Assembly (NCBI GenBank): GCA_947632335.1 | Contig: CANROX010000001.1 | Location: forward strand, 5,653 to 69,652 | From: an uncultured Clostridia bacterium | Lineage (GTDB): Bacteria > Bacillota > Clostridia > Oscillospirales > Acutalibacteraceae | Length of the DNA: 64,000 bases | Direction of reading: 5' to 3' | Translations under genes and position numbers: made by a program | In this document: in pieces, positions 5,045 to 55,444 of the stretch | How positions within the stretch are numbered: position 1 is the first letter of the stretch | How the letters are laid out: every line of letters starts with the position of its first letter | Notes under the pieces: model-generated | What the model saw: only the letters and a program-made list of their open reading frames with translations | Databases searched by the model: none | What the model was told of the DNA's origin: nothing

Positions 5045-5782
5045 TCAGAAGTAGTCGTAACCGCCTGTGATTTCAAGGAGAGTACCGTTGATAAAATCAT
5101 TTGTCATTGTATCATAAACCAGCTTTGCAATTTCGTCAGCCTCTGCAAAACGGTGCAGATTAATTTTTTTATTAATTCTGTCGTAGCTTTCCTGACTTCT
5201 GCCGTTTTGCCAAGGAGTCTGAACAAATGATGGGGCAATAGCGTTAATGGAAACATTCTGTCCGTCAAATTCCTTTAGCAGACATTTTGCAAGGTGATGA
5301 ACTCCTGCCTTTGAAACGGAATAAACAAGGGACGAGCTGTAGGAAAGGGAACCTGCAAGGGAACCCATAAGAATTATTTTGCCTCCCTTGTTAAAGCGAG
5401 GTTTCAGCTTTTGTATCATAAAGGTTGGAACAGAAAGGTTTGTCCTAAGAATTTTTTCCCAGATTTCGTAGTCATATTCCTCAAACTTCTTATATGTTCC
5501 AATGGCTGTGTTGCACACAAGCCAGTCGATTTTCGGACTGATTTCAATTACCTGCTCCACAAAGTCCTCCATACCCTCATATGTGGACATATCTGCGTAA
5601 ATAAAGGTTACTTTTTTCTTATCTTCCTGTGAAAGCTCAGAGAGCATTTGAGTTTTCTGGTCCTCTTCAAAGTAGTTAATAATTAGTTTATCCTCTGTGC
5701 AGCGGGATTCTTTTAGTAATTTATTGGCGATAGCCTTTCCTATTCCGGAAGTACCGCTTGTAACAATCATTACTTTGGACAT
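5045..5782 (-). CDS. Short-chain dehydrogenase/reductase (SDR) family oxidoreductase
   Basis: TSGTSGIGKA Rossmann motif, YSVSK catalytic Y-x-x-x-K, and 245 aa length. It is first in the minus-strand run with the two LicD genes. Confidence 0.85.
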   Translation of the reverse strand: MSKVMIVTSGTSGIGKAIANKLLKESRCTEDKLIINYFEEDQKTQMLSELSQEDKKKVTFIYADMSTYEGMEDFVEQVIEISPKIDWLVCNTAIGTYKKFEEYDYEIWEKILRTNLSVPTFMIQKLKPRFNKGGKIILMGSLAGSLSYSSSLVYSVSKAGVHHLAKCLLKEFDGQNVSINAIAPSFVQTPWQNGRSQESYDRINKKINLHRFAEADEIAKLVYDTMTNDFINGTLLEITGGYDYF

Positions 5783-6198
5783 AATATACCTCGTATCTAA
5801 ATTAAATTTTTACATAACTATCCATATTATCATTGTATCATTTTACCACAAGGGTTTAATATAAGTCAATAATTCAAGGGTTACAAATTGCTTACAATAT
5901 ATAGTATAAGGCTTTTTGGGAGTAAAATTAAAAAGTATAGGCCATACCTTTAACCAGAACTTAATTTATCTGGGCAATTCCTTTAAAACCGGGTTTGCTT
6001 TATAAGTATATGCCTTTTTGAGGGGCACGGGACGCCCCGCTTGTCAAATTTATGCCCATTATGGCCTATGTGCCTTAAAAATATATTATAAATATGTGAT
6101 AAAAAAGAATATGTCAAAATTATTTGCGATTTTCCCCTATTTGTAGTAAAATATAATTTAATGTGTAAAATTAAACTTTAAAAAAGGGGGGTGACAGT

Positions 6199-8097
6199 AT
6201 GGCAGTTCTTTCAGCCTATAACATTGGACTGTCCTTTATAGAGAGAAAACTCTTTCAGGGCGTAACCTTTAATGTGGAGGAAAGGGATAAAATCGGACTT
6301 ATCGGTGCAAACGGCACAGGAAAGACAACCCTGCTTAAAATTCTTACAGGCTTAATTTCCCCTGACGAGGGTTCTGTTACAACAGGAAAAAATACCGTGT
6401 TGGGCTATATGCAGCAGCACGCCTGCACAGTACAGGACAGAACGGTGTATGACGAACTGCTGACTGTTTTTGAACCCCTCATTAATATGGAAAAGGAGCT
6501 TGAAATACTTCCTGCCCTTATTGAAAAGGGAAAGGGAGATATTCATTCTCTTATAGAAAAACAGGACATACTTCTTACAGAGTTTCAAAACAGGGGAGGC
6601 CTTACCTATAAAAGCCGGACAAAAAGCTGCCTTATAGGCCTTGGCTTTAGGGAAGAGGATTTCTCTATGGAGGTTGGAAAACTTTCGGGAGGTCAGAAAA
6701 GCAAGCTAAGTCTTGCAAAGCTGCTTTTGTCAGGGGCAAATCTTCTTTTGCTTGACGAACCTACAAATCACCTTGATATTAATGCAGTGGGCTGGCTGGA
6801 AAACTTTTTAAAGGAATTTGATGGCAGTGCAATTATTATCAGCCACGACAGATATTTTCTTGATGAGGTAACTAACAAAACAATGGAAATTTACTGCAAG
6901 GGCCTTGTTTCCTATGAGGGGAACTACAGTGTTTTTGCAGACAAAAAGGCGAAACAGCAGGAGAGTATCCGCAGGAAATACGAAAACGACATTAAGGAAA
7001 TAAAGCGTATTGAAGGTATAATTGAACAGCAAAAGGGCTGGGCAACAGAGAGAAACTTTATTACAGCGGCAAGCAAGCAAAAGGAAGTTGACAGAATAAA
7101 GGCACAGCTTGTTGTTCCCCAGGAGGAAAGTCACAACCTTAGATTTAAGTTTGAATTAAAACAGGAAAGCGGGGAGGATGTGCTGATTTGTAAGGATTTA
7201 TCAAAATCCTTTGGAAACAACCGCCTTTTCAGTAATCTTAGCTTTCACCTTAAAAAAGGAGAGAAAGTGTTTATTATGGGAGAAAACGGCGTTGGGAAAA
7301 CCACCCTGTTTAAAATAATTACAGGCAGTCAAATGGCGGACTATGGCTATATTGACTATGGAACAGGGGTTAAAATCGGTTACTTTGACCAACTCCAGGC
7401 AAATCTTAGTTTGGAAAAGGACAGCTTTTCGGAGATTCACGACGCTTTCCCCGATATGACGGAAACACAGGTGAGAAAGGCCCTTGGAAGATTTGGTTTT
7501 AGAGGGGATGAGGTTTTTAAGAAAATGTCCCTTATGTCAGGAGGCGAAAGGGCAAAGGTAAACCTGCTGAAACTTATGCTGCAGGGAGATAATTTGCTGC
7601 TTCTTGACGAGCCTACAAATCACCTTGATACATTTTCAAGGGAAAGCCTTGAACAGACCCTTAGGGAATATAAGGGAACTCTCCTTGTAATAAGCCACGA
7701 CAGATATTTTGTAAATAAACTGTCTGACAGGATACTATATCTTACCGACACCGGAATTAGGGAGTATCTTGGAAACTACGATTACTTTGTGGAACACAAC
7801 GGCGAAAATTCTGTCCCTATCCTAAAGGTAAAAAAGGATAATTCCCGGGGTGCAAGGGACTACAGGCAGGAGAAAGAGGAAAAGGCAAGACTTCGCAAAA
7901 GGGAAAATCAAATTAAAAAGACCCAGGCCCTTATAGAACAGCTTGACCGGGAAATTGCCTGTATAGAGGAAAAACTAAAGGAAGAAAGCATTTCCTCCGA
8001 CTATCAAAAACTTATGGAATACACAGATAATCTGGAACAGCTCCGACTCCGTCAGGAAGAGGCTTTTCAAAAATGGGAAGAACTTGAAAATCAGTAA
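6199..8097 (+). CDS. ABC-F family ATPase (two ABC domains, no transmembrane domain, C-terminal coiled coil)
   Basis: Two Walker A motifs (GANGTGKTT, GENGVGKTT), two ABC signatures (LSGGQKSK, MSGGERAK), an interdomain linker and a charged coiled-coil tail. The SD GGGGGTG lies before the ATG. Confidence 0.9.
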   Translation: MAVLSAYNIGLSFIERKLFQGVTFNVEERDKIGLIGANGTGKTTLLKILTGLISPDEGSVTTGKNTVLGYMQQHACTVQDRTVYDELLTVFEPLINMEKELEILPALIEKGKGDIHSLIEKQDILLTEFQNRGGLTYKSRTKSCLIGLGFREEDFSMEVGKLSGGQKSKLSLAKLLLSGANLLLLDEPTNHLDINAVGWLENFLKEFDGSAIIISHDRYFLDEVTNKTMEIYCKGLVSYEGNYSVFADKKAKQQESIRRKYENDIKEIKRIEGIIEQQKGWATERNFITAASKQKEVDRIKAQLVVPQEESHNLRFKFELKQESGEDVLICKDLSKSFGNNRLFSNLSFHLKKGEKVFIMGENGVGKTTLFKIITGSQMADYGYIDYGTGVKIGYFDQLQANLSLEKDSFSEIHDAFPDMTETQVRKALGRFGFRGDEVFKKMSLMSGGERAKVNLLKLMLQGDNLLLLDEPTNHLDTFSRESLEQTLREYKGTLLVISHDRYFVNKLSDRILYLTDTGIREYLGNYDYFVEHNGENSVPILKVKKDNSRGARDYRQEKEEKARLRKRENQIKKTQALIEQLDREIACIEEKLKEESISSDYQKLMEYTDNLEQLRLRQEEAFQKWEELENQ

Positions 8098-13317: not shown

Positions 13318-15564
13318 TTATTTAAGGAATGTGCCGTTTTCCCCAATCTTACCGCTTATACCTGTAAAGCCGTTGTCGCAGGCCACATATATTCTGGCGT
13401 TGCCCTTTCCGATTGAGTCGGTTGTAAGGGTGCCGTTGGTAACTACTTTTTTGTCGCCGGTAACAGCGTCAATATATGTACAGTTGGGAATATTCTTAAA
13501 GGTTGCTCCTCCGCTTACCGTACAAAGGGCAAGGGAATCAACTCCCTGGGAGGAATTTGTATATCTTCTGATATACGCCATATTTCCGTTTACATAATTG
13601 CTGTCCACTGTGTACTGTCCCTTTTGCAGGGCGGGTACTGCCTGTCTTATAAGGTTGAGCTGCCGCAAATGAGCGGAGATAGGGGCGGATAATGTGGACT
13701 GCACCTTGCCGGACGCCTGGTATTTACCAAAGTCGCTTGCTTTGACTGTACCCTCAAGATTTTCCCCATAGTATGCACGGCCTGTTGTTGCAAGTGGAGC
13801 GTTTGGTCCTACATCAATTCTCTGACCTGCCATAAACTGGGTTTCAGAGCCGTAGTAAACGCAGGGAATACCTCTGAATGTAAACATAAGTGAAAGGTTT
13901 TCCGCCCAGGCGCTGGTATCTCCGGGGTATCTTACATCCATATCGGGGCCGTAGTCGTGGGAGTCAACATAGGTTACATTGTAGGTTGAGTCGTTGTAAT
14001 ATGGGTCTTCCTCCTTAGCTCTTGTAAAGGCGTTGCCTGCATTGCCAAAATTCCAGTGCATGGGGAAGTCAATGACTCCGGTTTTGTTGCTCTTGCTGTA
14101 GTCCGGTGTATGATATTTAATACCGCTAAGGTAAACATTGTCGGATTTTTGTGCGTTTGCCGTAGTGGAATTGCTGTCGTAATGTTTAAGTGTAAGGTTT
14201 ACATTTGTTTCCCAGTCAGAGCCAAGAGCTCCCTTGTACTGGCTGTCTGTTTCTGCCCATGTATAGAAAGGAGCAGAGATGGCAGGTATGCCGTGATTCC
14301 AAAATTCCGATACCCTTGTGCAGACTTCACCGAAGATAAAGAAATTATCTCCTCCTGTCTTTTGCCATGATGGGAAGAAAAACTGGTTAAGGGTAAGTCT
14401 TGAAACATGTTTTTCCGTATCAAGCCTGAATGCGTCAACACCCATATCAATATAGCTGTTGTAGGCTGAGTTAAGATAGTCTGCAACCTTTGGATTTTCC
14501 GTATTAATATCCACGCAGTCCCCTGCAATCTGTCCTGTCTGTACGGTGGGACTTTCCCAGCTAAGGTCTTTATAGTGGTGGAAATAGTTATTTGTATCGC
14601 ACTGGGGAGCACCTAACTCTCTGGTGTCTTTCATAACCGCCAGCCTTGCCTGATACTGAAGTGACGGGTCAAGACTGCTATAGTTAGGAAATACCCTATC
14701 AAGGGTTGAGCCCTTTATAATATTCATACAGTCAGCTGTTTCCAGCTTGCTGTAATCCTTAGTGAACATAGGTGCAAGGAAATTCTCTCCAAAGTTGCCT
14801 GCGTGGTTTACAACTACATCCTGAATTATCTTCATACCCTTTTCGTGGGCGGCGTCAACAAGGTCTTGGTATGTTGCACCATTTGACTCATAACGGGGGT
14901 CAACCTTTGTAAAATCAAAGGCGTGGTATCCGTGGTAGTCATATCCCGAGGCATTTTCTACAACCGGAGTAATCCAAACTGCGGTAAAGCCCAGGGCTTT
15001 AATATAGTCCAGCTTTTCAATAAGACCCTTAAAATCTCCTCTCCATGCCGGGTCATCGTCAGGATTGTTTGCCTGTCCGTCGTCCCAGCAGTGGACATTG
15101 TTGTCCTTATCGCCGTCGTAAAATCTTGTAGTAATTACAAAATAGATGCTGTCCTCACGCAGGTCTGTCCTTTCGTAGTCCCCGTAAATAGAGGGGTCTT
15201 TTGAGGTCCAGCGGTTGTTTTTATACCACCATTCTCCGGCGTCCCTTGTAAGTTCGGCACCCTGTTTGCCGTTTTGGACAAACATAAGATTAATTTTTGT
15301 CTTACCGCTGAAAGAATACCTATACCAGTTGCCGCCCTCGGAAATCATTTCAGGGCCGGGATATGAGGTTTCTGCATTTGTGGGCAGGGCGTTCCAGTAG
15401 TAAATATTGGGAGTACCGCCTTCACAGTAGTAGTGTACTGTTATTGCGGAGGTTTCGGAAGAGTCCTTTTCCGAAATATTTGCCGCAGAAGTACTGATAA
15501 TTGCAGTGCTTACGAGTAATGCAATTATTAGCACCAGGGCAAAAAGTTTTTTTGTTTTGTTCAT
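13318..15564 (-). CDS. Secreted GH13 alpha-amylase with an N-terminal starch-binding-like module
   Basis: Signal peptide MNKTKKLFALVLIIALLVSTAIISTSA. GH13 regions DVVVNHAG, GVDAFRLDTEKH, FIFGEV and YVDSHD. The N-terminal beta-module has the ITVHYY...IYYWN...WYRYSF...LMFVQNG pattern. Confidence 0.9.
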   Translation of the reverse strand: MNKTKKLFALVLIIALLVSTAIISTSAANISEKDSSETSAITVHYYCEGGTPNIYYWNALPTNAETSYPGPEMISEGGNWYRYSFSGKTKINLMFVQNGKQGAELTRDAGEWWYKNNRWTSKDPSIYGDYERTDLREDSIYFVITTRFYDGDKDNNVHCWDDGQANNPDDDPAWRGDFKGLIEKLDYIKALGFTAVWITPVVENASGYDYHGYHAFDFTKVDPRYESNGATYQDLVDAAHEKGMKIIQDVVVNHAGNFGENFLAPMFTKDYSKLETADCMNIIKGSTLDRVFPNYSSLDPSLQYQARLAVMKDTRELGAPQCDTNNYFHHYKDLSWESPTVQTGQIAGDCVDINTENPKVADYLNSAYNSYIDMGVDAFRLDTEKHVSRLTLNQFFFPSWQKTGGDNFFIFGEVCTRVSEFWNHGIPAISAPFYTWAETDSQYKGALGSDWETNVNLTLKHYDSNSTTANAQKSDNVYLSGIKYHTPDYSKSNKTGVIDFPMHWNFGNAGNAFTRAKEEDPYYNDSTYNVTYVDSHDYGPDMDVRYPGDTSAWAENLSLMFTFRGIPCVYYGSETQFMAGQRIDVGPNAPLATTGRAYYGENLEGTVKASDFGKYQASGKVQSTLSAPISAHLRQLNLIRQAVPALQKGQYTVDSNYVNGNMAYIRRYTNSSQGVDSLALCTVSGGATFKNIPNCTYIDAVTGDKKVVTNGTLTTDSIGKGNARIYVACDNGFTGISGKIGENGTFLK

Positions 15565-15783: not shown

Positions 15784-15810
15784 CACTATTGTAAAAAAAT
15801 TAATATCTTT

Positions 15811-15907
15811 GCAGAGTAGGCTTTGGAGCGTTAAGTGCATGGTAAACAGGAAGTTGTTACTGTGACGAAAAGACTTGTCTTGCGATTTCTCAGCCGCATT
15901 CCGCTGC
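15811..15907 (+). promoter_or_regulatory. THF (tetrahydrofolate) riboswitch aptamer
   Basis: GCAGAGUAGG...GAGCGUUAAGUG...GUGACGAAA...CGCAUUCCGCUGC matches the conserved GAGUAG / GCGUUAAGUG / ACGAA / CAUCCGCUC-type blocks of the THF riboswitch as I recall them. P1 is GCAG/CUGC. It lies directly upstream of folE. Confidence 0.8.
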
Positions 15908-15913
15908 TACATA

Positions 15914-15956
15914 AAAACCTCTTGTGTTGTATACGGAATACTGCATAGGAGGTTTT
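15914..15956 (+). promoter_or_regulatory. Riboswitch expression platform: hairpin sequestering the folE SD (terminator-like)
   Basis: AAAACCUC (15914-15921) pairs with GAGGUUUU (15949-15956). This buries the AGGAGG SD, and U-rich sequence follows. Confidence 0.55.
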
Positions 15957-15960
15957 CTTT

Positions 15961-16515
15961 ATGGATTCAGAAAAAATTAAACAGGCTGTGACACTTTTTT
16001 TGCAGGGGATTGGGGAAGATCCCGACAGGGAGGGACTTCTTGAAACTCCCGAAAGAGTCGCCAGAATGTGTGAGGAAATTTACGGCGGACTGGGAAAGAC
16101 GGCAGAGGAACATTTAAAAAAACAGTTTACCTCGGAAAACAGCGAAATTGTCCTTGTTAAGGATATAAATTTTTATTCCATCTGCGAACACCATTTACTG
16201 CCCTTTTTCGGAAAGGTCCATATTGCATATATTCCTGACGGAAAGGTTGTGGGACTTAGCAAGATTGCAAGAGCTGTGGAGGTTTATGCAAGACGTCCCC
16301 AGATACAGGAACAGCTTACCTGCCAGATTGCCGACGCTCTCCGGAAGTACCTTAACCCAAAGGGCGTTATGGTAATGATTGAGGCAGAGCATATGTGTAT
16401 GTCAATGCGAGGTATTAAAAAGCCGGGAAGCATTACAGTGACCTATGGCACAAGGGGCTGTTTCATAAAAGATTATGAAAGGCAGAAAATGTTTTTTGAA
16501 ATGGTGAAGTCATAA
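15961..16515 (+). CDS. folE: GTP cyclohydrolase I
   Basis: [14 protein letters not shown] and [10 protein letters not shown] motifs; 184 aa. Confidence 0.95.
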
Positions 16516-16992
16516 ATGGAACGGATAAATCTTATTTTGAATAATGAAAAGTACAAAAGCTGTCTTGAAAAGTTAGAAGAGCTGGAAAAGGACAGAAAAT
16601 TTTGCCGTCATACTCCTGAGCATTTTCTTGATACGGCAAGAATAATGTATATAACCGCCTTGGAGGAGAATTTGCCTGTAAGCAAGGAAATAGTTTATGC
16701 AACCGCACTTCTCCATGACATTGGCAGGGTGAAACAGTACGAGGAGAATATTCCCCATGACAGGGCTGGGGCGGATTTTGCCAGGGAGATACTTCCCTCT
16801 GCCCGTTTCACGAATGAGGAAACAGAGGAGATAGCCTCTGCAATTTTTTGTCATAGAAACAGAGTGGGAAAAAGTGTGCTGGGAAAACTTCTATGCTTTG
16901 CAGATAAAAAGTCAAGACTTTGTTTCCTATGCAAGGCAAGAGAGGAATGTAACTGGGAAGAGGGAAGAAAGAATAAATATATAAGGTTATAA
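16516..16992 (+). CDS. HD-domain phosphohydrolase embedded in the folate operon, with a Cys-rich tail
   Basis: H...HD...D pattern (CRHTPEH, LLHDIGR, IPHDRAG) and C-terminal CFADKKSRLCFLCKAREEC. Its start abuts the folE stop. Confidence 0.7.
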   Translation: MERINLILNNEKYKSCLEKLEELEKDRKFCRHTPEHFLDTARIMYITALEENLPVSKEIVYATALLHDIGRVKQYEENIPHDRAGADFAREILPSARFTNEETEEIASAIFCHRNRVGKSVLGKLLCFADKKSRLCFLCKAREECNWEEGRKNKYIRL

Positions 16993-17008
16993 ATTTTGGG
17001 ACAAAGCT

Positions 17009-17815
17009 ATGAAAATAGGAAATACTCAATTTGATACAGAAAATAAAACCTATGTTATGGGTATACTGAATATTACCCCAAATTCATTTTCCGACGGAGG
17101 AAGCTGGAACAGTCTTGATAAGGCACTTTTCAGAACGGAACAGATGATTAAAGAGGGTGCGGACATTATAGATGTTGGGGGAGAATCAACCCGTCCCGGC
17201 TACACTATGATTTCCGAAAGTGAAGAAATAGAAAGGATAGTGCCTGTAATTGCAGGAATAAAGGAAAGGTTTGACATACCTGTTTCCGCAGATACATATA
17301 AGTCCGCTGTGGCCAAAAAGGCTTTGGAAACAGGGGCGGACCTGATAAACGACATTTGGGGCCTAAAGTATGACAAAAATATGGCAAAGGTGATTTCCCG
17401 CAGCGGTGCAGTTTGCTGTCTTATGCACAACAGGGAAAAACCTGAGTACAGGGACTTTGTTAAGGATATGATAAATGAAACTATGGAATGTGCAGAAATT
17501 GCCCTTAATTCAGGAATAAAAAGGGACAAAATTATTCTTGACCCCGGTGTGGGTTTTGGAAAAACCTATGAACAAAACCTTATGTGCGTTAAACATCTTC
17601 ATCAGCTTTGTGAAAGGGGTTACCCTGTACTCTTGGGCTGTTCAAGAAAATCCCTTATAGGAAATACTCTTGATTTGCCTGTTGAGGAAAGGCTGGAGGG
17701 GACTCTTGTTACCACGGTTATGGCAGTGCTGAGCGGCTGTGCATTTGTGCGTGTTCACGACATTAAGGAAAATGTAAGGGCAATTAAAATGGCAGAGGCA
17801 ATAATGGATAGGTGA
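17009..17815 (+). CDS. folP: Dihydropteroate synthase
   Basis: MGILNITPNSFSDGG, DVGGESTRPG and GFGK motifs. Confidence 0.95.
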   Translation: MKIGNTQFDTENKTYVMGILNITPNSFSDGGSWNSLDKALFRTEQMIKEGADIIDVGGESTRPGYTMISESEEIERIVPVIAGIKERFDIPVSADTYKSAVAKKALETGADLINDIWGLKYDKNMAKVISRSGAVCCLMHNREKPEYRDFVKDMINETMECAEIALNSGIKRDKIILDPGVGFGKTYEQNLMCVKHLHQLCERGYPVLLGCSRKSLIGNTLDLPVEERLEGTLVTTVMAVLSGCAFVRVHDIKENVRAIKMAEAIMDR

Positions 17816-17819
17816 TATT

Positions 17820-18641
17820 ATGCGGGATACTATAAAAATAAAGGATTTGGAGGTTTACGCCTGCCACGGAGTTTTTAAGGAGGAACGAAAACTGGGACAA
17901 AAATTCCTTGTCAGCGCAGAGCTTTATACCGACTTTTCCTGTGCAGCAGAAAATGACGACCTTAATCTTTCCGTAGACTACGGCTCTGTGTGCAGAAAGA
18001 TTAAGGAGCTTATGGAAAACAACACCTACAGTCTTATTGAAACGGCAGGGGAAAAAACAGCGGAAATGCTCCTTAGTCAGTATGATTTGCTTACAGGCGT
18101 AAGGGTTGAAATAAAAAAGCCATGGGCCCCTATCGGCGTGCCCTTGGATACAGTATCAGTAGAGATAGAAAGGCATTGGCATACTGCATATATCGGACTT
18201 GGCTCAAATATGGGGGACAAGTATGAATATATAAACAGAGCTGTAAAAGAGCTGGACAATGCAGATGGATGTAGGGTGGAAAAGGTTTCAAAGCTCATTA
18301 CTACACCTCCCTACGGCGGTGTGGTTCAGGAGGATTTTTTAAACGGAGTACTGAGTCTTAAAACAATTTTAAGCCCCGTCAGACTTTTAAAACTTCTGAA
18401 CAGAATTGAAGCACAAGCCAACCGCAAAAGAGAAGTTCACTGGGGACCCAGAACCCTGGATTTGGACATTCTCCTTTACGACAATGAAATTGTGGACAGC
18501 GAAAATCTCCACATTCCCCATATTGATATGCAAAACAGAAGTTTTGTGCTGGAGCCTCTATCTGAGATTGCTCCATATGTAAGACACCCCGTTCTCAACA
18601 AAACAGCGGAACAGCTGTTAAAGGAGCTTAACAGCAGATGA
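17820..18641 (+). CDS. folBK: Bifunctional dihydroneopterin aldolase / HPPK
   Basis: The N-terminus has the FolB pattern (IKDLEVYACHGVFKEERKLGQKF). The C-terminal half is HPPK (AYIGLGSNMGD...WGPRTLDLDILLY). Confidence 0.9.
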   Translation: MRDTIKIKDLEVYACHGVFKEERKLGQKFLVSAELYTDFSCAAENDDLNLSVDYGSVCRKIKELMENNTYSLIETAGEKTAEMLLSQYDLLTGVRVEIKKPWAPIGVPLDTVSVEIERHWHTAYIGLGSNMGDKYEYINRAVKELDNADGCRVEKVSKLITTPPYGGVVQEDFLNGVLSLKTILSPVRLLKLLNRIEAQANRKREVHWGPRTLDLDILLYDNEIVDSENLHIPHIDMQNRSFVLEPLSEIAPYVRHPVLNKTAEQLLKELNSR

Positions 18642-19129
18642 CAGCGCTGATAGTTGCCTATACCAAAAACAGGGTTATAGGCAGAAAAGGAATTATTCCT
18701 TGGAATTTGAAAAATGAGAAAAAGCGTTTTAAAGCTCTTACAACAAATAATGTGGTGGTTATGGGAAGAAAAACCTTTGAGGAAATAGGCAGTCCTCTGC
18801 CAAACAGAATAACGGTTGTTGTGTCTTCTAAAAAAATTTTCCGGTACGAAAACTGCTATACAGTAAAAACCCTTAATGAGGCTATGGAACTTGCCCATAG
18901 AAAATTTCCCGAAATGGATATTTATATTTCCGGAGGAGAAAGGCTGTATAGAGAGAGCCTCCGGGCTGTGGATAAAATGTTCATTACGGAAATTGACGCA
19001 GTAATGGAGGGGGATACCTTTTTCCCTGTATTTGATGAAAATGATTTTTATAGGGAAACAGAGGGAGAGTTTACAGAGGAGTTTACCTACAGGTATCTTA
19101 CATATACAAGAAAGACAACCCCGATTTAG
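18638..19129 (+). CDS. folA: Dihydrofolate reductase
   Basis: LIVAYTKNRVIGRKGIIPW...VVMGRKTFEEIG; 163 aa; ATGA overlap with folBK. Confidence 0.9.
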   Translation: MTALIVAYTKNRVIGRKGIIPWNLKNEKKRFKALTTNNVVVMGRKTFEEIGSPLPNRITVVVSSKKIFRYENCYTVKTLNEAMELAHRKFPEMDIYISGGERLYRESLRAVDKMFITEIDAVMEGDTFFPVFDENDFYRETEGEFTEEFTYRYLTYTRKTTPI

Positions 19130-19142: not shown

Positions 19143-19207
19143 GCCTGTATTGAATAAAAATATTCCCTGTGATAAAATACTATATATTCAATTAAGGCGG
19201 TAGGAAG

Positions 19208-21790
19208 ATGAAAAAGATAGTAACGGGAATTTTAGCCCATGTTGATTCGGGAAAAACAACCCTTACGGAGGCAATGCTGTATACCTCCGGCAATATAAGA
19301 AAACTGGGCAGGGTTGACAACAGGGACAGCTTTTTAGATAATTTTTCCCTTGAACGCCAAAGGGGAATTACCATTTTTTCAAAGCAGGCAATACTTAACT
19401 ACAGGGATACCCAGTTTACACTTATTGATACTCCCGGCCATGTGGATTTTTCTGCGGAAACAGAAAGAACATTACAGGTGCTGGACTATGCAATCCTTGT
19501 TATCAGCGGAACACAAGGTGTTCAGAGTCACACAAAAACTTTGTGGAAACTTCTTTCAAAATACAATGTTCCCTGCTTTATTTTTGTAAACAAAATGGAT
19601 ATGGAGGGCAGTGATATATCTCTGAATATGGCAATACTAAAGTCAAGGTTAAGCGACAACTGTGTGGACTTCAGCGATACCCATAGTGAAAGCTTTTTTG
19701 AAAATATTGCCCTGTGTGACGACTGCCTTTTTGAAAAATATGAGGGCGGCCAACTGGAAAGACGCCATATAGTAAAAGGCATCAGGGAAAGAAAAATTTT
19801 CCCCTGTATGTTTGGCTCGGCTCTGAAACTACAGGGTGTTCAGGAGTTTCTCAACTGCCTTGACCACTATACGGAGATGCCCTCTTACGGGGATGAATTT
19901 GGAGGCAAGGTATATAAGATTTCCCAGGACAAGGGTCAGCGCCTGACATTTATGAAAGTTACAGGGGGAAGTCTGAGGGTTAAGGAGGTTCTTAACAGTA
20001 CGAAAAATAAAAACGGGGAAAAGGTAAATCAGATACGCATTTATTCGGGGGAAAAGTTTACTGCCATAGATGAGGCAGGTGCAGGTACTGTGTGTGCAGT
20101 AACGGGAGTGACCTTTACTTCCCCCGGCGACGGACTGGGCATAGAAAAAAACACGGGACTTCCTGTGCTGGAACCTGTGCTTACCTATAAAATAAATCTG
20201 CCTGCCGATACGGACCCTCACACCGCCCTTGAAAAAATGAAAATTCTTGAAAGTGAGGACCCCCTCCTTAAAGTTCAGTGGAGAGAGGAATTAGGGGAAA
20301 TACAGGTAAAGCTGATGGGGGACATTCAGCTTGAAATTTTAAAGTCTGTGATTGCAGACAGATTCGGCATAGATGTGAGTTTTGGAAAGGGTAATATCAT
20401 ATACAAAGAAACCATCAGTAATACAGTGGAGGGTGTCGGTCACTTTGAACCCCTGCGCCACTATGCGGAGGTTCATCTGATTTTAAAGCCGGGAGAAAGG
20501 GACAGCGGCCTTGTGTTTAACACAAAATGCAGGGAGGACTTGCTGGACAAAAACTGGCAGAGGCTTATCCTTACCCATTTGTATGAGAAAACCCATATAG
20601 GCGTCCTTACAGGCTCGCCTGTTACGGATATGGAGATTACCCTGGTGTCGGGGAAATCTCACCCAAAGCATACCGAGGGCGGAGATTTCAGACAGGCAAC
20701 CTACAGGGCGGTAAGGCAGGGTTTAAGAAGTGCAAAATCGGTACTTCTTGAGCCTGTATATGAATTTTTACTTGAAGTACCTACTGAAAATTTAGGCAGG
20801 GCCATGTGGGATATTCAGCATATGAGGGGCAGTTTTGACAACCCCGAAACCCATGGGGAAATGTCAATCCTTACAGGAAAGGCCCCTGTTTCCGCTATGT
20901 ATGACTATATGAAAGAGGTTGTTCAGTACACCCACGGAAAGGGAAAACTGATGTGCAGTCTAAAGGGATATGAGCCTTGCCGCAACAGTGAGGAGGTTAT
21001 TAAAAATATTGGCTACGACCCAGATAAGGATACGGAAAATCCCTGTGACTCTGTTTTTTGTTCCCACGGGGCAGGACATAATGTAAAGTGGAATGAAGTA
21101 AAATCCCATATGCACCTTTCCTCCTCTCTCTATGCTCCAAAGGACAGGGAAAGTACCTATGATAACGAGAATCTTTCAAAGTACAGGGACAGGGAGGATA
21201 TTTTTGCCTTAGATAAGGAACTTATGGAGATTTTTGAACAGACCTACGGCCCTGTAAAAAAGAAAAATAATAATGAAGTTTATAAAAAGTGTATTGACTA
21301 TACACAATCAGCAAAAACTAAAAAGGATAAAAATAAAACCCCTCAAAATTATGAGGGGGAAGAATATATACTTGTAGACGGATACAATGTAATATTTTCC
21401 TGGGATAACCTTAGGGAACTGTCCAAGGTTACAATAGACGGTGCAAGGGACGCCCTGATAAACATTCTCTGCAATTACCAAGGCTATAAAAAGTGCAGGA
21501 TAATTTTGGTGTTTGACGCATACAAGGTAAAGGGAAACAAGGGGGAAGTGGAAAAATACAACAACATTGATGTGGTGTATACAAAGGAGGCGGAAACCGC
21601 CGACGCCTATATTGAAAAGGTGAGCCGCACCCTTGTCAAAAATTACAGGGTTAAGGTGGTGACCTCCGACGGCCTTGAACAGCTTATTATTTTGGGGAAT
21701 GGCGCTTTAAGGGTATCCTCAAAGGAATTTTTAGGTGAAGTAAAAGAGGCGGAGGAAACCATAAGGCAGATTATTTCCCAAAGTCACTAA
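19208..21790 (+). CDS. TetM/EF-G-like translational GTPase fused to a C-terminal Rae1/YacP-type NYN ribonuclease domain
   Basis: G1 AHVDSGKT, G2 RGITI, G3 DTPGH, G4 NKMD and G5 GSALK, colinear with TetM over ~635 aa. A K/N-rich linker follows, then ILVDGYNVI...ILVFDAY...ETADAYIE...VVTSDGLEQ, which closely resembles B. subtilis Rae1 (YacP). A TTGAAT-17-TAAAAT promoter-like element is at 19150-19178. Confidence 0.85.
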   Translation: MKKIVTGILAHVDSGKTTLTEAMLYTSGNIRKLGRVDNRDSFLDNFSLERQRGITIFSKQAILNYRDTQFTLIDTPGHVDFSAETERTLQVLDYAILVISGTQGVQSHTKTLWKLLSKYNVPCFIFVNKMDMEGSDISLNMAILKSRLSDNCVDFSDTHSESFFENIALCDDCLFEKYEGGQLERRHIVKGIRERKIFPCMFGSALKLQGVQEFLNCLDHYTEMPSYGDEFGGKVYKISQDKGQRLTFMKVTGGSLRVKEVLNSTKNKNGEKVNQIRIYSGEKFTAIDEAGAGTVCAVTGVTFTSPGDGLGIEKNTGLPVLEPVLTYKINLPADTDPHTALEKMKILESEDPLLKVQWREELGEIQVKLMGDIQLEILKSVIADRFGIDVSFGKGNIIYKETISNTVEGVGHFEPLRHYAEVHLILKPGERDSGLVFNTKCREDLLDKNWQRLILTHLYEKTHIGVLTGSPVTDMEITLVSGKSHPKHTEGGDFRQATYRAVRQGLRSAKSVLLEPVYEFLLEVPTENLGRAMWDIQHMRGSFDNPETHGEMSILTGKAPVSAMYDYMKEVVQYTHGKGKLMCSLKGYEPCRNSEEVIKNIGYDPDKDTENPCDSVFCSHGAGHNVKWNEVKSHMHLSSSLYAPKDRESTYDNENLSKYRDREDIFALDKELMEIFEQTYGPVKKKNNNEVYKKCIDYTQSAKTKKDKNKTPQNYEGEEYILVDGYNVIFSWDNLRELSKVTIDGARDALINILCNYQGYKKCRIILVFDAYKVKGNKGEVEKYNNIDVVYTKEAETADAYIEKVSRTLVKNYRVKVVTSDGLEQLIILGNGALRVSSKEFLGEVKEAEETIRQIISQSH

Positions 21791-21793
21791 GGT

Positions 21794-22873
21794 TTAAATA
21801 TAATTACAGCTCTCCCTTATAATTAATTTGCAGGGCAGTTCTATACGAACATTTTCCCTGTGCAGTCCCTCTTTTCTGTCCATAAGAAGATTTAACGCCA
21901 TGTGGGCCATTTCTCTTTTGGGAATATCTATGGTGGTAAGCATAGGGGAAGTGGACTGTGCCTCATAAATATTATCAATGGAAATTACAGAGGGTATATA
22001 TCCCCGCTTTTTATTGATTTTCAGAGCTTTTAGCACTCCTAATGCCGTGCAGTCATTGGCGCAGAATATGGCTGTGGGGCGGTTTTCAGAGGAAATGATT
22101 TTGTTCATTGTCTTAAAGCCTGCCTCTGTGGTCTGGAGTGTTGGATAAATATTGTCGTGGTTAAGGGGGATTTTGTGGCTCATAAGGGTTTGGTAATATC
22201 CTATGTATCGGGACTCATAGTTGCAGTCCCCTATGTAGGCTATGTTTGTATGCCCCAGGGATATAAGGTATTCTATTGCCTTTTCTGCCGCAGTTGCGCC
22301 GTTGCACACCACCTCGTCATACATGTAGTCCGTTGGATTTCTGTCAACCCCTGCAACGGAAACATATCTTTTTTTAAGTACGGGTATAAGCCGGGCAGGG
22401 CATTTCCCAAGAATGATAAGGCCTGTGTTTTCTTTGGTTTTAATATATGCAGTGCTGTTGCCTGTCTTTTCTTCTGCAATACTTTTGGAGGATTTATAGG
22501 GTATATGGGTCATATCCTTTCCCTTTTCCGTCAATTCCATAATGTCCGTAGAATTAAGAATACTGCCAAGTAAACAGCCGTTAATCAAAAGCTCTTCCTT
22601 AATGTTTCTGAAAACCTGGCTGAAAAAAAGGTCCTCTTCAACAGAGTCAAACCTGGTAATAAAAACATCAACAACAAAAGGTGTTTGTTCAGTGGTTTTT
22701 CCCTTTCTGAGATTTCTTGCAAAGGTGTTGGGGGTGTAATTGAGCTTTTTTGCAGTATCCCAAATTTTCTCTGCAAGGAGAGAATCGTTGCATACATAGT
22801 CGGGATTGTTTAAAACACGGGAAACCGTTGCAACAGAGGCCCCTGTCAGTTCCGCTATTTTCTTTAAGGACAT
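21794..22873 (-). CDS. LacI-family transcriptional regulator
   Basis: HTH MSLKKIAELTGASVATVSRVLNNP followed by a periplasmic-binding-fold sugar-sensor-type domain. I prefer the ATG at 22873 over the track's GTG at 22903, which has no SD, while the HTH begins right at the Met. Confidence 0.8.
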   Translation of the reverse strand: MSLKKIAELTGASVATVSRVLNNPDYVCNDSLLAEKIWDTAKKLNYTPNTFARNLRKGKTTEQTPFVVDVFITRFDSVEEDLFFSQVFRNIKEELLINGCLLGSILNSTDIMELTEKGKDMTHIPYKSSKSIAEEKTGNSTAYIKTKENTGLIILGKCPARLIPVLKKRYVSVAGVDRNPTDYMYDEVVCNGATAAEKAIEYLISLGHTNIAYIGDCNYESRYIGYYQTLMSHKIPLNHDNIYPTLQTTEAGFKTMNKIISSENRPTAIFCANDCTALGVLKALKINKKRGYIPSVISIDNIYEAQSTSPMLTTIDIPKREMAHMALNLLMDRKEGLHRENVRIELPCKLIIRESCNYI

Positions 22874-22888
22874 ACTATCACTCTTTTC

Positions 22889-22902
22889 TGAAATCGTTTT
22901 CA
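22889..22902. promoter_or_regulatory. LacI-family/cre-type operator TGAAATCGTTTTCA (copy 1)
   Basis: Near-palindrome that fits TGWAANCGNTNWCA, 16 nt upstream of the preferred LacI start. Confidence 0.5.
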
Positions 22903-22965
22903 CAATTTTCTATCATTTTCCTGCTGTATAATCCAACAATATCAGAAAATTCCTTTGAAATCAAG

Positions 22966-55178: not shown

Positions 55179-55444
55179 AAAAAAATCGCCCCTAAAAAAT
55201 TAGGGACGAATTAAAATTCGTGGTACCACCCAGGTTCAAATATATGTCGCCATATATTCCTTACAGACTTCTATCAAAGTCCTGACGGATAACGGTGTCT
55301 GCCGTTCTGCCCTTATAAGACAGAAAACTCCGGAATGAGCTATACATATAGGTTCTGACACTGCTTTACACCACACAGCAGTTCTCTTTGCACAGATGCC
55401 TATATCTTGTTCCCTTCACAGTTTTTTAGGGTTTTCTTTTGTTA
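55179..55444 (-). promoter_or_regulatory. T-box leader (tRNA-Leu, candidate specifier CUC) with a terminator
   Basis: On the minus strand: an AGAGA bulge, a distal hairpin with a UGGUG loop, a specifier loop ...GUAUAG-CUC-A above a GGAA/UUCC helix (CUC at 55339-55337), the conserved T-box GGGTGGTACCACG (55231-55219), and a terminator TCGTCCCTA...TAGGGGCGA followed by TTTTTTT. Confidence 0.8.

Follow-up and report, generated by a model that had tools for sequence, protein, structure and literature searches.

Described systems and the studied protein

Single proteins that join a TetM-like GTPase to a NYN_YacP ribonuclease domain have been noted in silico in Clostridia by Atkinson 2015 (BMC Genomics, Additional file 8; PMC4342817) and by Matelska et al. 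2017 (NAR; PMC5499597), of which the latter found them in some Clostridia and called their role unclear. The two studies did no more than list the architecture, for ten species, without settling its function (PMC4342817, PMC5499597). Here we describe such a fusion gene from a stretch of 64,000 nucleotides of an uncultured Clostridia bacterium of the Acutalibacteraceae (assembly GCA_947632335.1, contig CANROX010000001.1, positions 5,653 to 69,652 of the forward strand; the whole stretch is called the window, and all positions below refer to it). The encoded protein is a single-chain Tet/EF-G-like GTPase with a C-terminal NYN_YacP domain, comes from Clostridia like the described fusions, and shares 41-76% identity with the members of the family. 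It is a new sequence of a documented, functionally uncharacterised family, and the architecture is not new; the novelty implied by the first-pass annotation of the window, which was made from the sequence alone, was overstated.

The NYN part has its closest described relative in Rae1 (YacP) of Bacillus subtilis, which requires translating, stalled ribosomes for its action and might also detect collisions (PMC12407103). The targets of Rae1 are defined by translation and reading frame, and the enzyme is not a general RNase (PMC10351889, PMC12407103). Its sites include the SPP motif of fliY and the stop codons of spyA and bmrX (PMC12407103), and on stalled ribosomes the cut lies 12 nt upstream of the A-site codon (Deves et al. 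2025, PMC12407103). Cleavage feeds rescue by transfer-messenger RNA (tmRNA; PMC10351889), and the D7N D81N variant is in experimental use as a catalytically dead mutant (PMC10351889). The idea of a Rae1 cut inside the A site, which the first-pass annotation took as established, is outdated: it rested mainly on docking and was withdrawn in 2025 (PMC12407103). Structural work has been described as ongoing (PMC12407103).

For the GTPase part, the reference is the tetracycline ribosomal protection protein TetM. Its functionally most important element is loop III (L505-V510), and a C-terminal extension with a helix is also important (PMC4750697). Pro509 of the loop overlaps or clashes with the tetracycline site, and the S508A/P509A/V510A variant stays active provided that the conformation of the loop is preserved (PMC4750697, PMC7456112).

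The fusion is here interpreted tentatively, by analogy with these systems and with a confidence that falls somewhat short of even, as a ribosome-targeted nuclease with a built-in GTPase, which would carry out translation-dependent mRNA cleavage outside the A site, on ribosomes that have stalled or collided. Beyond the published notes, the present analysis adds the scale of the family, its failed membership in the Tet and EF-G families, family-specific motifs in domain IV and a folded extension of the GTPase, as well as unfused relatives that end at this extension, tether statistics and a reconciliation with the revised model of Rae1.

Architecture and distribution of the fusion

The single 860-codon open reading frame (ORF) of the first-pass annotation was confirmed with its ATG start and without internal stops (Table 1). 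The annotation had also placed a NYN_YacP domain at the C-terminus, and in the Pfam search this domain (PF05991) matched residues 721-858 with an E-value of 2.1e-49 and 168.2 bits against a gathering cut-off of 24.6; the motifs that it quoted (ILVDGYNVI, ILVFDAY, ETADAYIE and VVTSDGLEQ) could be read from the translation. All five G motifs were located where it had put them, AHVDSGKT at residues 10-17, RGITI at 52-56, DTPGH at 74-78, NKMD at 128-131 and GSALK at 203-207. Pfam and the AlphaFold2 model (predicted local distance difference test, pLDDT, 87.8) recovered a five-domain EF-G fold including the G domain. The best Foldseek matches of the whole model were EF-G and EF2 chains (E ~1e-53); the search returned only such chains and nothing on the extension or on the placement of the NYN domain.

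The proposed domain boundaries stood only in part. Colinearity with TetM, TetO and EF-G, which had been drawn to residue ~635, was found, but with TetO and TetM it stops near residue 591. The disordered tether was recovered at residues ~644-718, whereas residues ~595-643 are a folded extension and not linker.

The fusion was present in homologues at all levels of divergence examined. The best 120 matches in a collection of 5.8 billion proteins were 71-76% identical to the window protein and 855-881 residues long, and all had both the GTPase and the NYN Pfam domains. Approximately 140 of the best 150 representatives of clusters formed at 50% identity were also full-length fusions, with 830-1000 aa and 41-57% identity to the query; the fusion spans at least ~140 clusters at this level. 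When one genome per GTDB species was scanned, Clostridia genomes with the fusion numbered at least 600. Of these, the best 80 loci were all complete fusions with 52-67% identity, and they came from Ruminococcus, Acutalibacteraceae, Oscillospiraceae, Faecalibacterium prausnitzii, Flavonifractor, Intestinimonas and Lawsonibacter, from Blautia, Dorea, Anaerobutyricum and other Lachnospiraceae, and from Herbinix, Mobilitalea, Peptostreptococcaceae, Anaerovorax and Ornithomonoglobus. The fusion was found also in annotated records of Monoglobus pectinilyticus and Agathobacter rectalis.

Because homologues at many identity levels share the complete architecture, the fusion is not an artefact. A frameshift, two merged genes, and errors of ORF calling or assembly were all ruled out by the identical architecture of close and distant homologues. 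The in-frame fusion had been claimed from a single sequence, and the three surveys (the best 120 homologues, ~140 of 150 clusters and the best 80 loci) agree with it.

Conservation of the two catalytic centres

Conservation was assessed from an alignment of 136 diverse fusions, 41-57% identical to the query, and from a subset of 45, by counting residues at key positions. The NYN part aligned with residues 3-137 of B. subtilis YacP/Rae1 (PDB 5MQ8/5MQ9) at an E-value of 4.6e-27, with 43.7% identity in tblastn, and residues 719-860 were confidently folded in the AlphaFold2 model. In the alignment D724, D770, D799 and D821 correspond to D7, D53, D81 and D104 of Rae1, and each was retained in 134-136 of the 136 fusions. 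According to the family alignments D724, Y726, N727, D770, T792, D799 and D821 are invariant in the domain. The acidic positions said earlier to be kept are indeed kept, and the four aspartates include the equivalents of D7 and D81, the residues exchanged in the catalytically dead Rae1.

In the GTPase part, the P-loop, T55, D74-T75-P76-G77-H78, K129/D131 and G203 were invariant or nearly so in the 136 fusions, which indicates that the GTPase, including the catalytic histidine His78, is maintained across the family. The conservation of both sites despite only 41-57% identity between the fusions and the query indicates purifying selection on both catalytic centres, and both halves look catalytically competent.

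The tblastn searches with the NYN domain of the fusion and with B. subtilis Rae1 found no second stand-alone yacP/rae1 gene in the window or in the fetched loci, only the domain of the fusion itself; the DNA covered is far too little for statements on whole genomes.

A competent NYN domain could also have a target other than mRNA. With the GTPase docked on the ribosome, it might cut rRNA, for example near the 3' end or decoding region of the 16S rRNA, or tRNA, and so serve ribosome maturation, quality control, inactivation or turnover. A translational GTPase is paired with a PIN-like nuclease in eukaryotic 18S maturation, where eIF5B/Fun12 works with Nob1. Also the NYN_YacP genes are found in a neighbourhood of rRNA and tRNA processing, mrnC-yacO-yacP (Matelska 2017, PMC5499597). 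However, Rae1 is the only characterised member of NYN_YacP and is an mRNA endonuclease, with no rRNA substrate reported for it, and in the 80 loci the fusion gene was without a neighbourhood link to rRNA-processing genes. An rRNA or tRNA target is considered unlikely on this evidence, and cleavage of mRNA is preferred.

Relation of the GTPase to Tet proteins and EF-G

The GTPase module was approximately equidistant from the known families. EF-G scored 254 bits in two stretches, and TetO and TetM scored 244 and 233 bits, respectively, in one colinear stretch of residues 1-591; the EF-G alignment is split because of the longer G' insertion in EF-G. The best NCBIfam model was tet_protect, with 417.5 bits against a cut-off of 775. 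All models of named Tet proteins stayed below their cut-offs (TetM/W 278.9 vs 1100, Tet(Q) 257.9 vs 1425, Tet(M) 234.7 vs 1420), as did Otr(A) (281.6 vs 900) and the EF-G models NF009381 (339.3 vs 583) and TIGR00484 (308.7 vs 659.4).

In the alignment with TetM (the sequence of PDB 3J9Y) loop III, Y506-Y507-S508-P509-V510, corresponds to S484-H485-P486-K487-H488 of the fusion. The loop is of equal length, and the counterpart of Pro509 is Lys487, which is near-invariant in the family. His485 aligns with the histidine at the tip of domain IV of Thermus thermophilus EF-G ('GSYHEVDSS'). Past the motif 'LKGY', TetM ends soon, with a short extension unrelated to the longer one of the family. In the neighbor-joining tree TetM fell outside the family, at a distance of at least 0.72 compared to 0.46-0.5 within it. 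The tree is rough, indicative and star-like, and it favours the unfused forms neither as ancestral nor as secondary losses.

Two segments of domain IV are invariant in the family and absent from both TetM and EF-G. The first is GHFEPLRHYAEV at residues 411-422 (G411-H-F-E-P-L-R-H-Y-A-E-V422), and the second is the tip loop H485-x-K487-H488-T489-E-G-G-D493-F-R. The invariance of GHFEPLRHYAEV and KHTEGGDFR at the tip implies a conserved and family-specific functional contact in the decoding region.

These results bear on another reading of the gene, namely a classical tetracycline ribosomal protection protein with a dispensable C-terminal domain. This reading has the rank of tet_protect among the NCBIfam models and the colinearity with TetO and TetM on its side, and some orthologues are annotated by NCBI as members of the TetM/TetW/TetO/TetS family and were included in the Tet subfamily by Atkinson 2015 (PMC4342817). 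The equal length of loop III would also fit, as alanine substitutions are tolerated in the loop of TetM, which leaves tetracycline displacement conceivable on sequence grounds. The scores, however, are far below the cut-offs of tet_protect and of every named-Tet model, Pro509 is replaced by a near-invariant lysine, and the extension of TetM with its helix is replaced by an unrelated conserved one. TetM also lies far outside the family clade, the divergence pattern is unlike that of a mobile resistance gene, and the active site of the NYN domain shows strong purifying selection. The GTPase is probably not a true Tet protein, and it is unlikely that the fusion is a classical tetracycline resistance determinant; a protection protein with a dispensable tail is very improbable. 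The first-pass annotation had leaned to the same view, which is now backed by the scores, the loop III residues, the lack of a TetM-type extension, the variable chromosomal context and the wide spread in Clostridia.

The public names of the orthologues are inconsistent. They include 'TetM/TetW/TetO/TetS family tetracycline resistance ribosomal protection protein', 'small GTP-binding protein', 'NYN domain-containing protein' and 'translation factor GTPase family protein'. Many orthologues bear the resistance label; it is probably wrong for them, and gut metagenomes could yield resistome counts that are too high as a result.

Extension, unfused relatives and tether

The extension of ~50 residues that follows domain V carries a motif conserved in the family, YDP..D..NP..SVFC.HGAG..V.W.EV...MH. 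The Pfam search of residues ~595-643 gave no match, and in the alignment this extension is absent from TetM. The AlphaFold2 model predicts a helix at residues 594-601, a beta-hairpin at 615-626 and a second helix at 628-634, with pLDDT of ~87-94. A zinc site formed by C591, H592, C618 and H620 was considered and rejected: the cysteines are present in ~88% of the fusions, H620 in 101 of 136 and a histidine at position 592 in 82 of 136, and the window protein itself has an arginine at residue 592.

Members of the same GTPase subfamily without the NYN domain also exist, for example a protein of the L. salivarius megaplasmid, the proteins P0257 and P0270 and several others. The L. salivarius protein has 644 residues and is 51% identical over residues 1-636 of the query. 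All the unfused relatives end 5-10 residues past the '...MH' that closes the extension. This indicates a distinct Tet/EF-G-like subfamily whose natural C-terminus is the extension, and to which the tether and the NYN domain are an added module. Since the unfused relatives stop at the extension, the NYN domain would be an effector attached to a ribosome factor that already existed. No split version, with an unfused GTPase gene beside a separate NYN gene, was found at the pMP118 locus of L. salivarius or at five other unfused loci.

In L. salivarius UCC118 the unfused gene (LSL_RS10690, 644 aa) lies within 5402-7920 of megaplasmid pMP118 (NC_007930.1) and is annotated as a TetM-family resistance protein. 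An additional paralogue of S14 (rpsN) and a 'putative metal homeostasis protein' are encoded divergently from it; at this one locus, the neighbours hint that the gene may be connected with alternative ribosomal proteins or with metal limitation. Unfused members of 646-754 aa, some with insertions, were present also on five IMG/VR contigs (L084, L085, L086, L087 and L141). Several of them lie at contig edges, and they are probably host flanks of prophage calls.

The tether between the extension and the NYN domain varied from 60 to 143 residues in 134 fusions (median 87). Its sequence is variable and near neutral, with an abundance of E, K, R, A and S. Residues 644-668 and 684-714 had pLDDT values below 50. 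Between them lies a semi-conserved motif, D-x-E-L-x-x-I-F-x-R-T-Y-G-P (residues ~669-683, window positions 21212-21256), which is modelled as a helix of low confidence and could be a docking or autoinhibitory element. At 3.4-3.6 Å per residue, the minimum tether of 60 residues has a contour of ~200 Å, and a tether of at least 60 residues in all members points to a NYN domain that acts at a distance.

A tether of this kind would also suit an uncoupled pair, in which the GTPase performs a ribosomal task of its own, be it protection, rescue, splitting or back-translocation, while a general RNase, the NYN domain, is leashed nearby, independent of GTP hydrolysis and of stalling. The great variation of the tether in sequence and length is what a simple leash would predict, and the unfused members are complete and apparently functional with no NYN gene nearby. 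Against this stand the minimum length of the tether, the fact that Rae1 is not a general RNase, and the retention of the fusion, its two active sites invariant, in at least 600 species. The semi-conserved motif within the tether, together with the retention of the fusion, also suggests more than casual co-localisation. We regard such a loose association as rather improbable.

Proposed mode of action

In the preferred interpretation, a GTPase-equipped nuclease whose cleavage of mRNA depends on translation, the GTPase body would dock in the factor-binding site and the A site as its EF-G and Tet relatives do, with domain IV reaching the decoding region. The target ribosomes would be those that are unable to proceed, with the A site vacant or translocation blocked. 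Docking would raise the local concentration of the tethered NYN domain, and this would cut mRNA at the border of the stalled ribosome, or between ribosomes that have collided, where free Rae1 is now thought to cut. In one option the NYN domain would act on the same ribosome, reaching the mRNA entry or exit by means of the long tether. In the other the factor would sit on the trailing, translocation-blocked ribosome, and the cut would fall on the mRNA between it and the leading stalled ribosome; the mRNA entry of the trailing ribosome would abut the exit of the leading one in the region of Rae1 cutting. Hydrolysis of GTP could time the release of the factor or recycle it. The cut would leave a non-stop end on which tmRNA-type rescue could act, as for Rae1.

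The site of action differs from that proposed by the first-pass annotation, a GTPase-delivered nuclease of A-site mRNA. If domain IV fills the A site, the attached NYN domain could not share it and would therefore have to act outside; the protein's own domain IV and the tether of at least 60 residues both speak against the earlier proposal. The fusion could provide independent support, of the Rosetta-stone type, for the model of 2025, in which the A site is not where Rae1-type domains act.

Four points weigh against this interpretation. The substrate, whether mRNA, rRNA or tRNA, is assigned only by homology to Rae1 (~44% identity). The fused NYN domain matches positions 1-140 of the 166 profile positions and is without the last ~26 (~30 residues) of the stand-alone Rae1; the first-pass annotation was right on the NYN_YacP domain, but in calling it full it missed the lack of the extreme C-terminus. 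The earlier authors proposed an rRNA or tRNA target or a resistance role for the fusion (PMC4342817, PMC5499597). Finally, the full-text literature searches found no experimental work on the fusion, in agreement with the first-pass annotation, which knew of no experimental description.

A more far-reaching version, doubtful but not implausible, would make the fusion a bacterial 'no-go decay' machine in a single polypeptide. The EF-G-like module would sense the stall or collision, in the form of a vacant A site on a stalled ribosome or of a rotated ribosome that trails in a collided pair, and GTP-dependent docking would license a Rae1-type cut at the ribosome boundary. If this were true, free Rae1 of Bacillus, cyanobacteria and chloroplasts would work via the factor-binding side of the neighbouring ribosome or together with a translational GTPase, and the unfused GTPase relatives would be a new class of stall-sensing factors.

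Gene features and genomic context

The features of the fusion gene and the signals upstream of it are given in Table 1.

Table 1. Features of the fusion gene and its upstream region, with positions in the window.
Feature	Position	Strand	Basis
Whole coding sequence	19208..21790	+	ATG start, 860 codons + stop, no internal stop; full-length orthologues
G domain, residues 5-222, motifs G1-G5	19220..19873	+	Pfam GTP_EFTU, E 4.8e-51
EF-G domains II (residues 231-310) and III (residues 322-394)	19898..20389	+	Pfam EF-G_D2 and EFG_III; AlphaFold2 pLDDT >90
Domain IV, residues 396-510	20393..20737	+	Pfam EFG_IV; conservation; alignment with TetM and EF-G
Domain V, residues 512-594	20741..20989	+	Pfam EFG_C, E 5.9e-19
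C-terminal extension of the GTPase, residues ~595-643	20990..21136	+	Conservation; pLDDT ~87-94; no Pfam match
Disordered tether, residues ~644-718	21137..21361	+	pLDDT; gappy alignment columns; length statistics
Rae1/YacP-type NYN endoribonuclease domain, residues 719-860	21362..21787	+	Pfam NYN_YacP; alignment with PDB 5MQ8/5MQ9
Intrinsic terminator hairpin ending the upstream folate operon, overlapping the DHFR stop codon	19111..19145	+	RNA fold
Promoter-like site of the fusion gene: TTGAAT, 17 nt spacer, TG-TAAAAT	19150..19178	+	Consensus scan, pattern match only
Shine-Dalgarno region AAGGCGGTAGGAAG, directly before the ATG	19194..19207	+	Read from sequence

The upstream terminator has the form AAAGACAACCCC-GAUUUA-GGGGUUGUCUUU followed by a U-run, with a folding energy of -23.9 kcal/mol (z = -6.9). 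The promoter-like site matches the consensus at 9 of 12 positions and has the TG of an extended -10 element. Because the terminator lies upstream and is followed by the promoter-like site and a Shine-Dalgarno region before the ATG, the fusion gene appears to be a transcription unit of its own. The terminated operon (15810-19129, plus strand) consists of a tetrahydrofolate riboswitch (RF01831, 81.8 bits), folE, an HD-domain gene (16516-16992), folP, a folB-folK fusion and the DHFR gene. The HD-domain gene between folE and folP may be a candidate for the missing pyrophosphatase step of the folate pathway.

Downstream, a LacI-family gene (21794-22903, minus strand) is convergent with the fusion gene, and the stop codons of the two are 3 nt apart. 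A terminator-like hairpin on the minus strand at 21339-21358, CCCCTCATAATTTTGAGGGG followed by a T-run, lies ~440 nt beyond the stop of the LacI-family gene and inside the region coding for the tether; it may terminate an antisense transcript or may be a chance match. The orthologue of 73% identity, which lies on a contig of 2 Mb, is surrounded by entirely different genes and is without the LacI-family gene. Co-expression with a helix-turn-helix gene, as mentioned in Matelska 2017 (PMC5499597), was rejected as a general feature; the LacI-family gene is convergent here and is absent at the orthologous locus examined.

Clustering of the ORFs within 6 kb on either side of the fusion gene at the 80 loci found no conserved neighbours; the best cluster consisted of generic ABC ATPases and was present at 14 of the 80 loci. 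There was no second Tet/EF-G-like gene in the window or in the flanks of the loci. PADLOC matched 0 families of defence models at E ≤ 0.01, and a total of 2.9 million viral contigs contained only ~6 members of the GTPase family, most of them at the edge of a contig. The divergence of the family is deep and roughly congruent with taxonomy, in variable chromosomal contexts, and from this the fusion gene looks like a vertically inherited chromosomal housekeeping gene and not a mobile resistance or defence gene.

The phage-triggered role suggested by the first-pass annotation found no support, given the empty PADLOC result, the absence of conserved neighbours and the near-absence of the family from viral contigs. 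The same applies to the wider proposal that the fusion is a suicide or shut-off effector triggered by stress or phage, that is, a toxin-like inhibitor of translation. A ribosome-targeted RNase could in principle stop translation, but at the 80 loci there was no conserved partner, antitoxin or sensor gene, and the distribution in Clostridia looks like that of a housekeeping gene; such an effector seems hardly credible.

Elsewhere in the window, a T-box leader was detected at 55199-55428 on the minus strand (RF00230; 99.5 bits, gathering score 93). The gene at 13318-15564 (minus strand) encodes a secreted alpha-amylase that starts with a signal-like sequence and has a starch-binding module of type CBM26, which fits a host among the starch-degrading gut Clostridia.

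Comparison with known systems

Members of the fusion family occur in hundreds of Clostridia species, among them species of the dominant human-gut genera Faecalibacterium, Agathobacter, Blautia, Dorea and Ruminococcus, and the family amounts to an uncharacterised but widespread translation factor. As to how Rae1-type nucleases locate stalled ribosomes, the fusion hard-wires a Rae1 domain to a factor with a predictable docking site, offering a tractable handle for cryo-electron microscopy and biochemistry.

With TetM and TetO the family shares the five-domain EF-G-like layout, the short G' region and the colinear residues 1-591. In comparison to them it forms a distant clade of its own, with different loop III residues and a different extension, and without association with mobile elements. 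The likeness to EF-G comprises the overall fold and the G motifs, while the G' region of the fusion is shorter, loop I of domain IV is changed from GGRGQY in EF-G to an invariant EPLRHY, and the extension, tether and NYN domain are additional.

The likeness to Rae1 comprises the NYN_YacP fold, with residues 3-137 aligned at ~44% identity and all four acidic residues present. Rae1 itself consists of one free domain of ~170 residues, and its gene typically lies in the mrnC-yacO-yacP neighbourhood, whereas in the fusion the NYN domain is joined to a GTPase of 640 residues, the gene contexts are unrelated and variable, and the last ~26 profile positions are missing.

In its proposed role the fusion would resemble SmrB of Escherichia coli, Cue2 of yeast and the A-site nuclease RelE, which cut mRNA on stalled or collided ribosomes and so lead to rescue; Rae1 has been compared with such stall and collision nucleases (PMC12407103). 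The folds of these proteins (SMR, RelE) are unrelated to the NYN/PIN-like fold and none of them is fused to a GTPase, so that the likeness is functional only.

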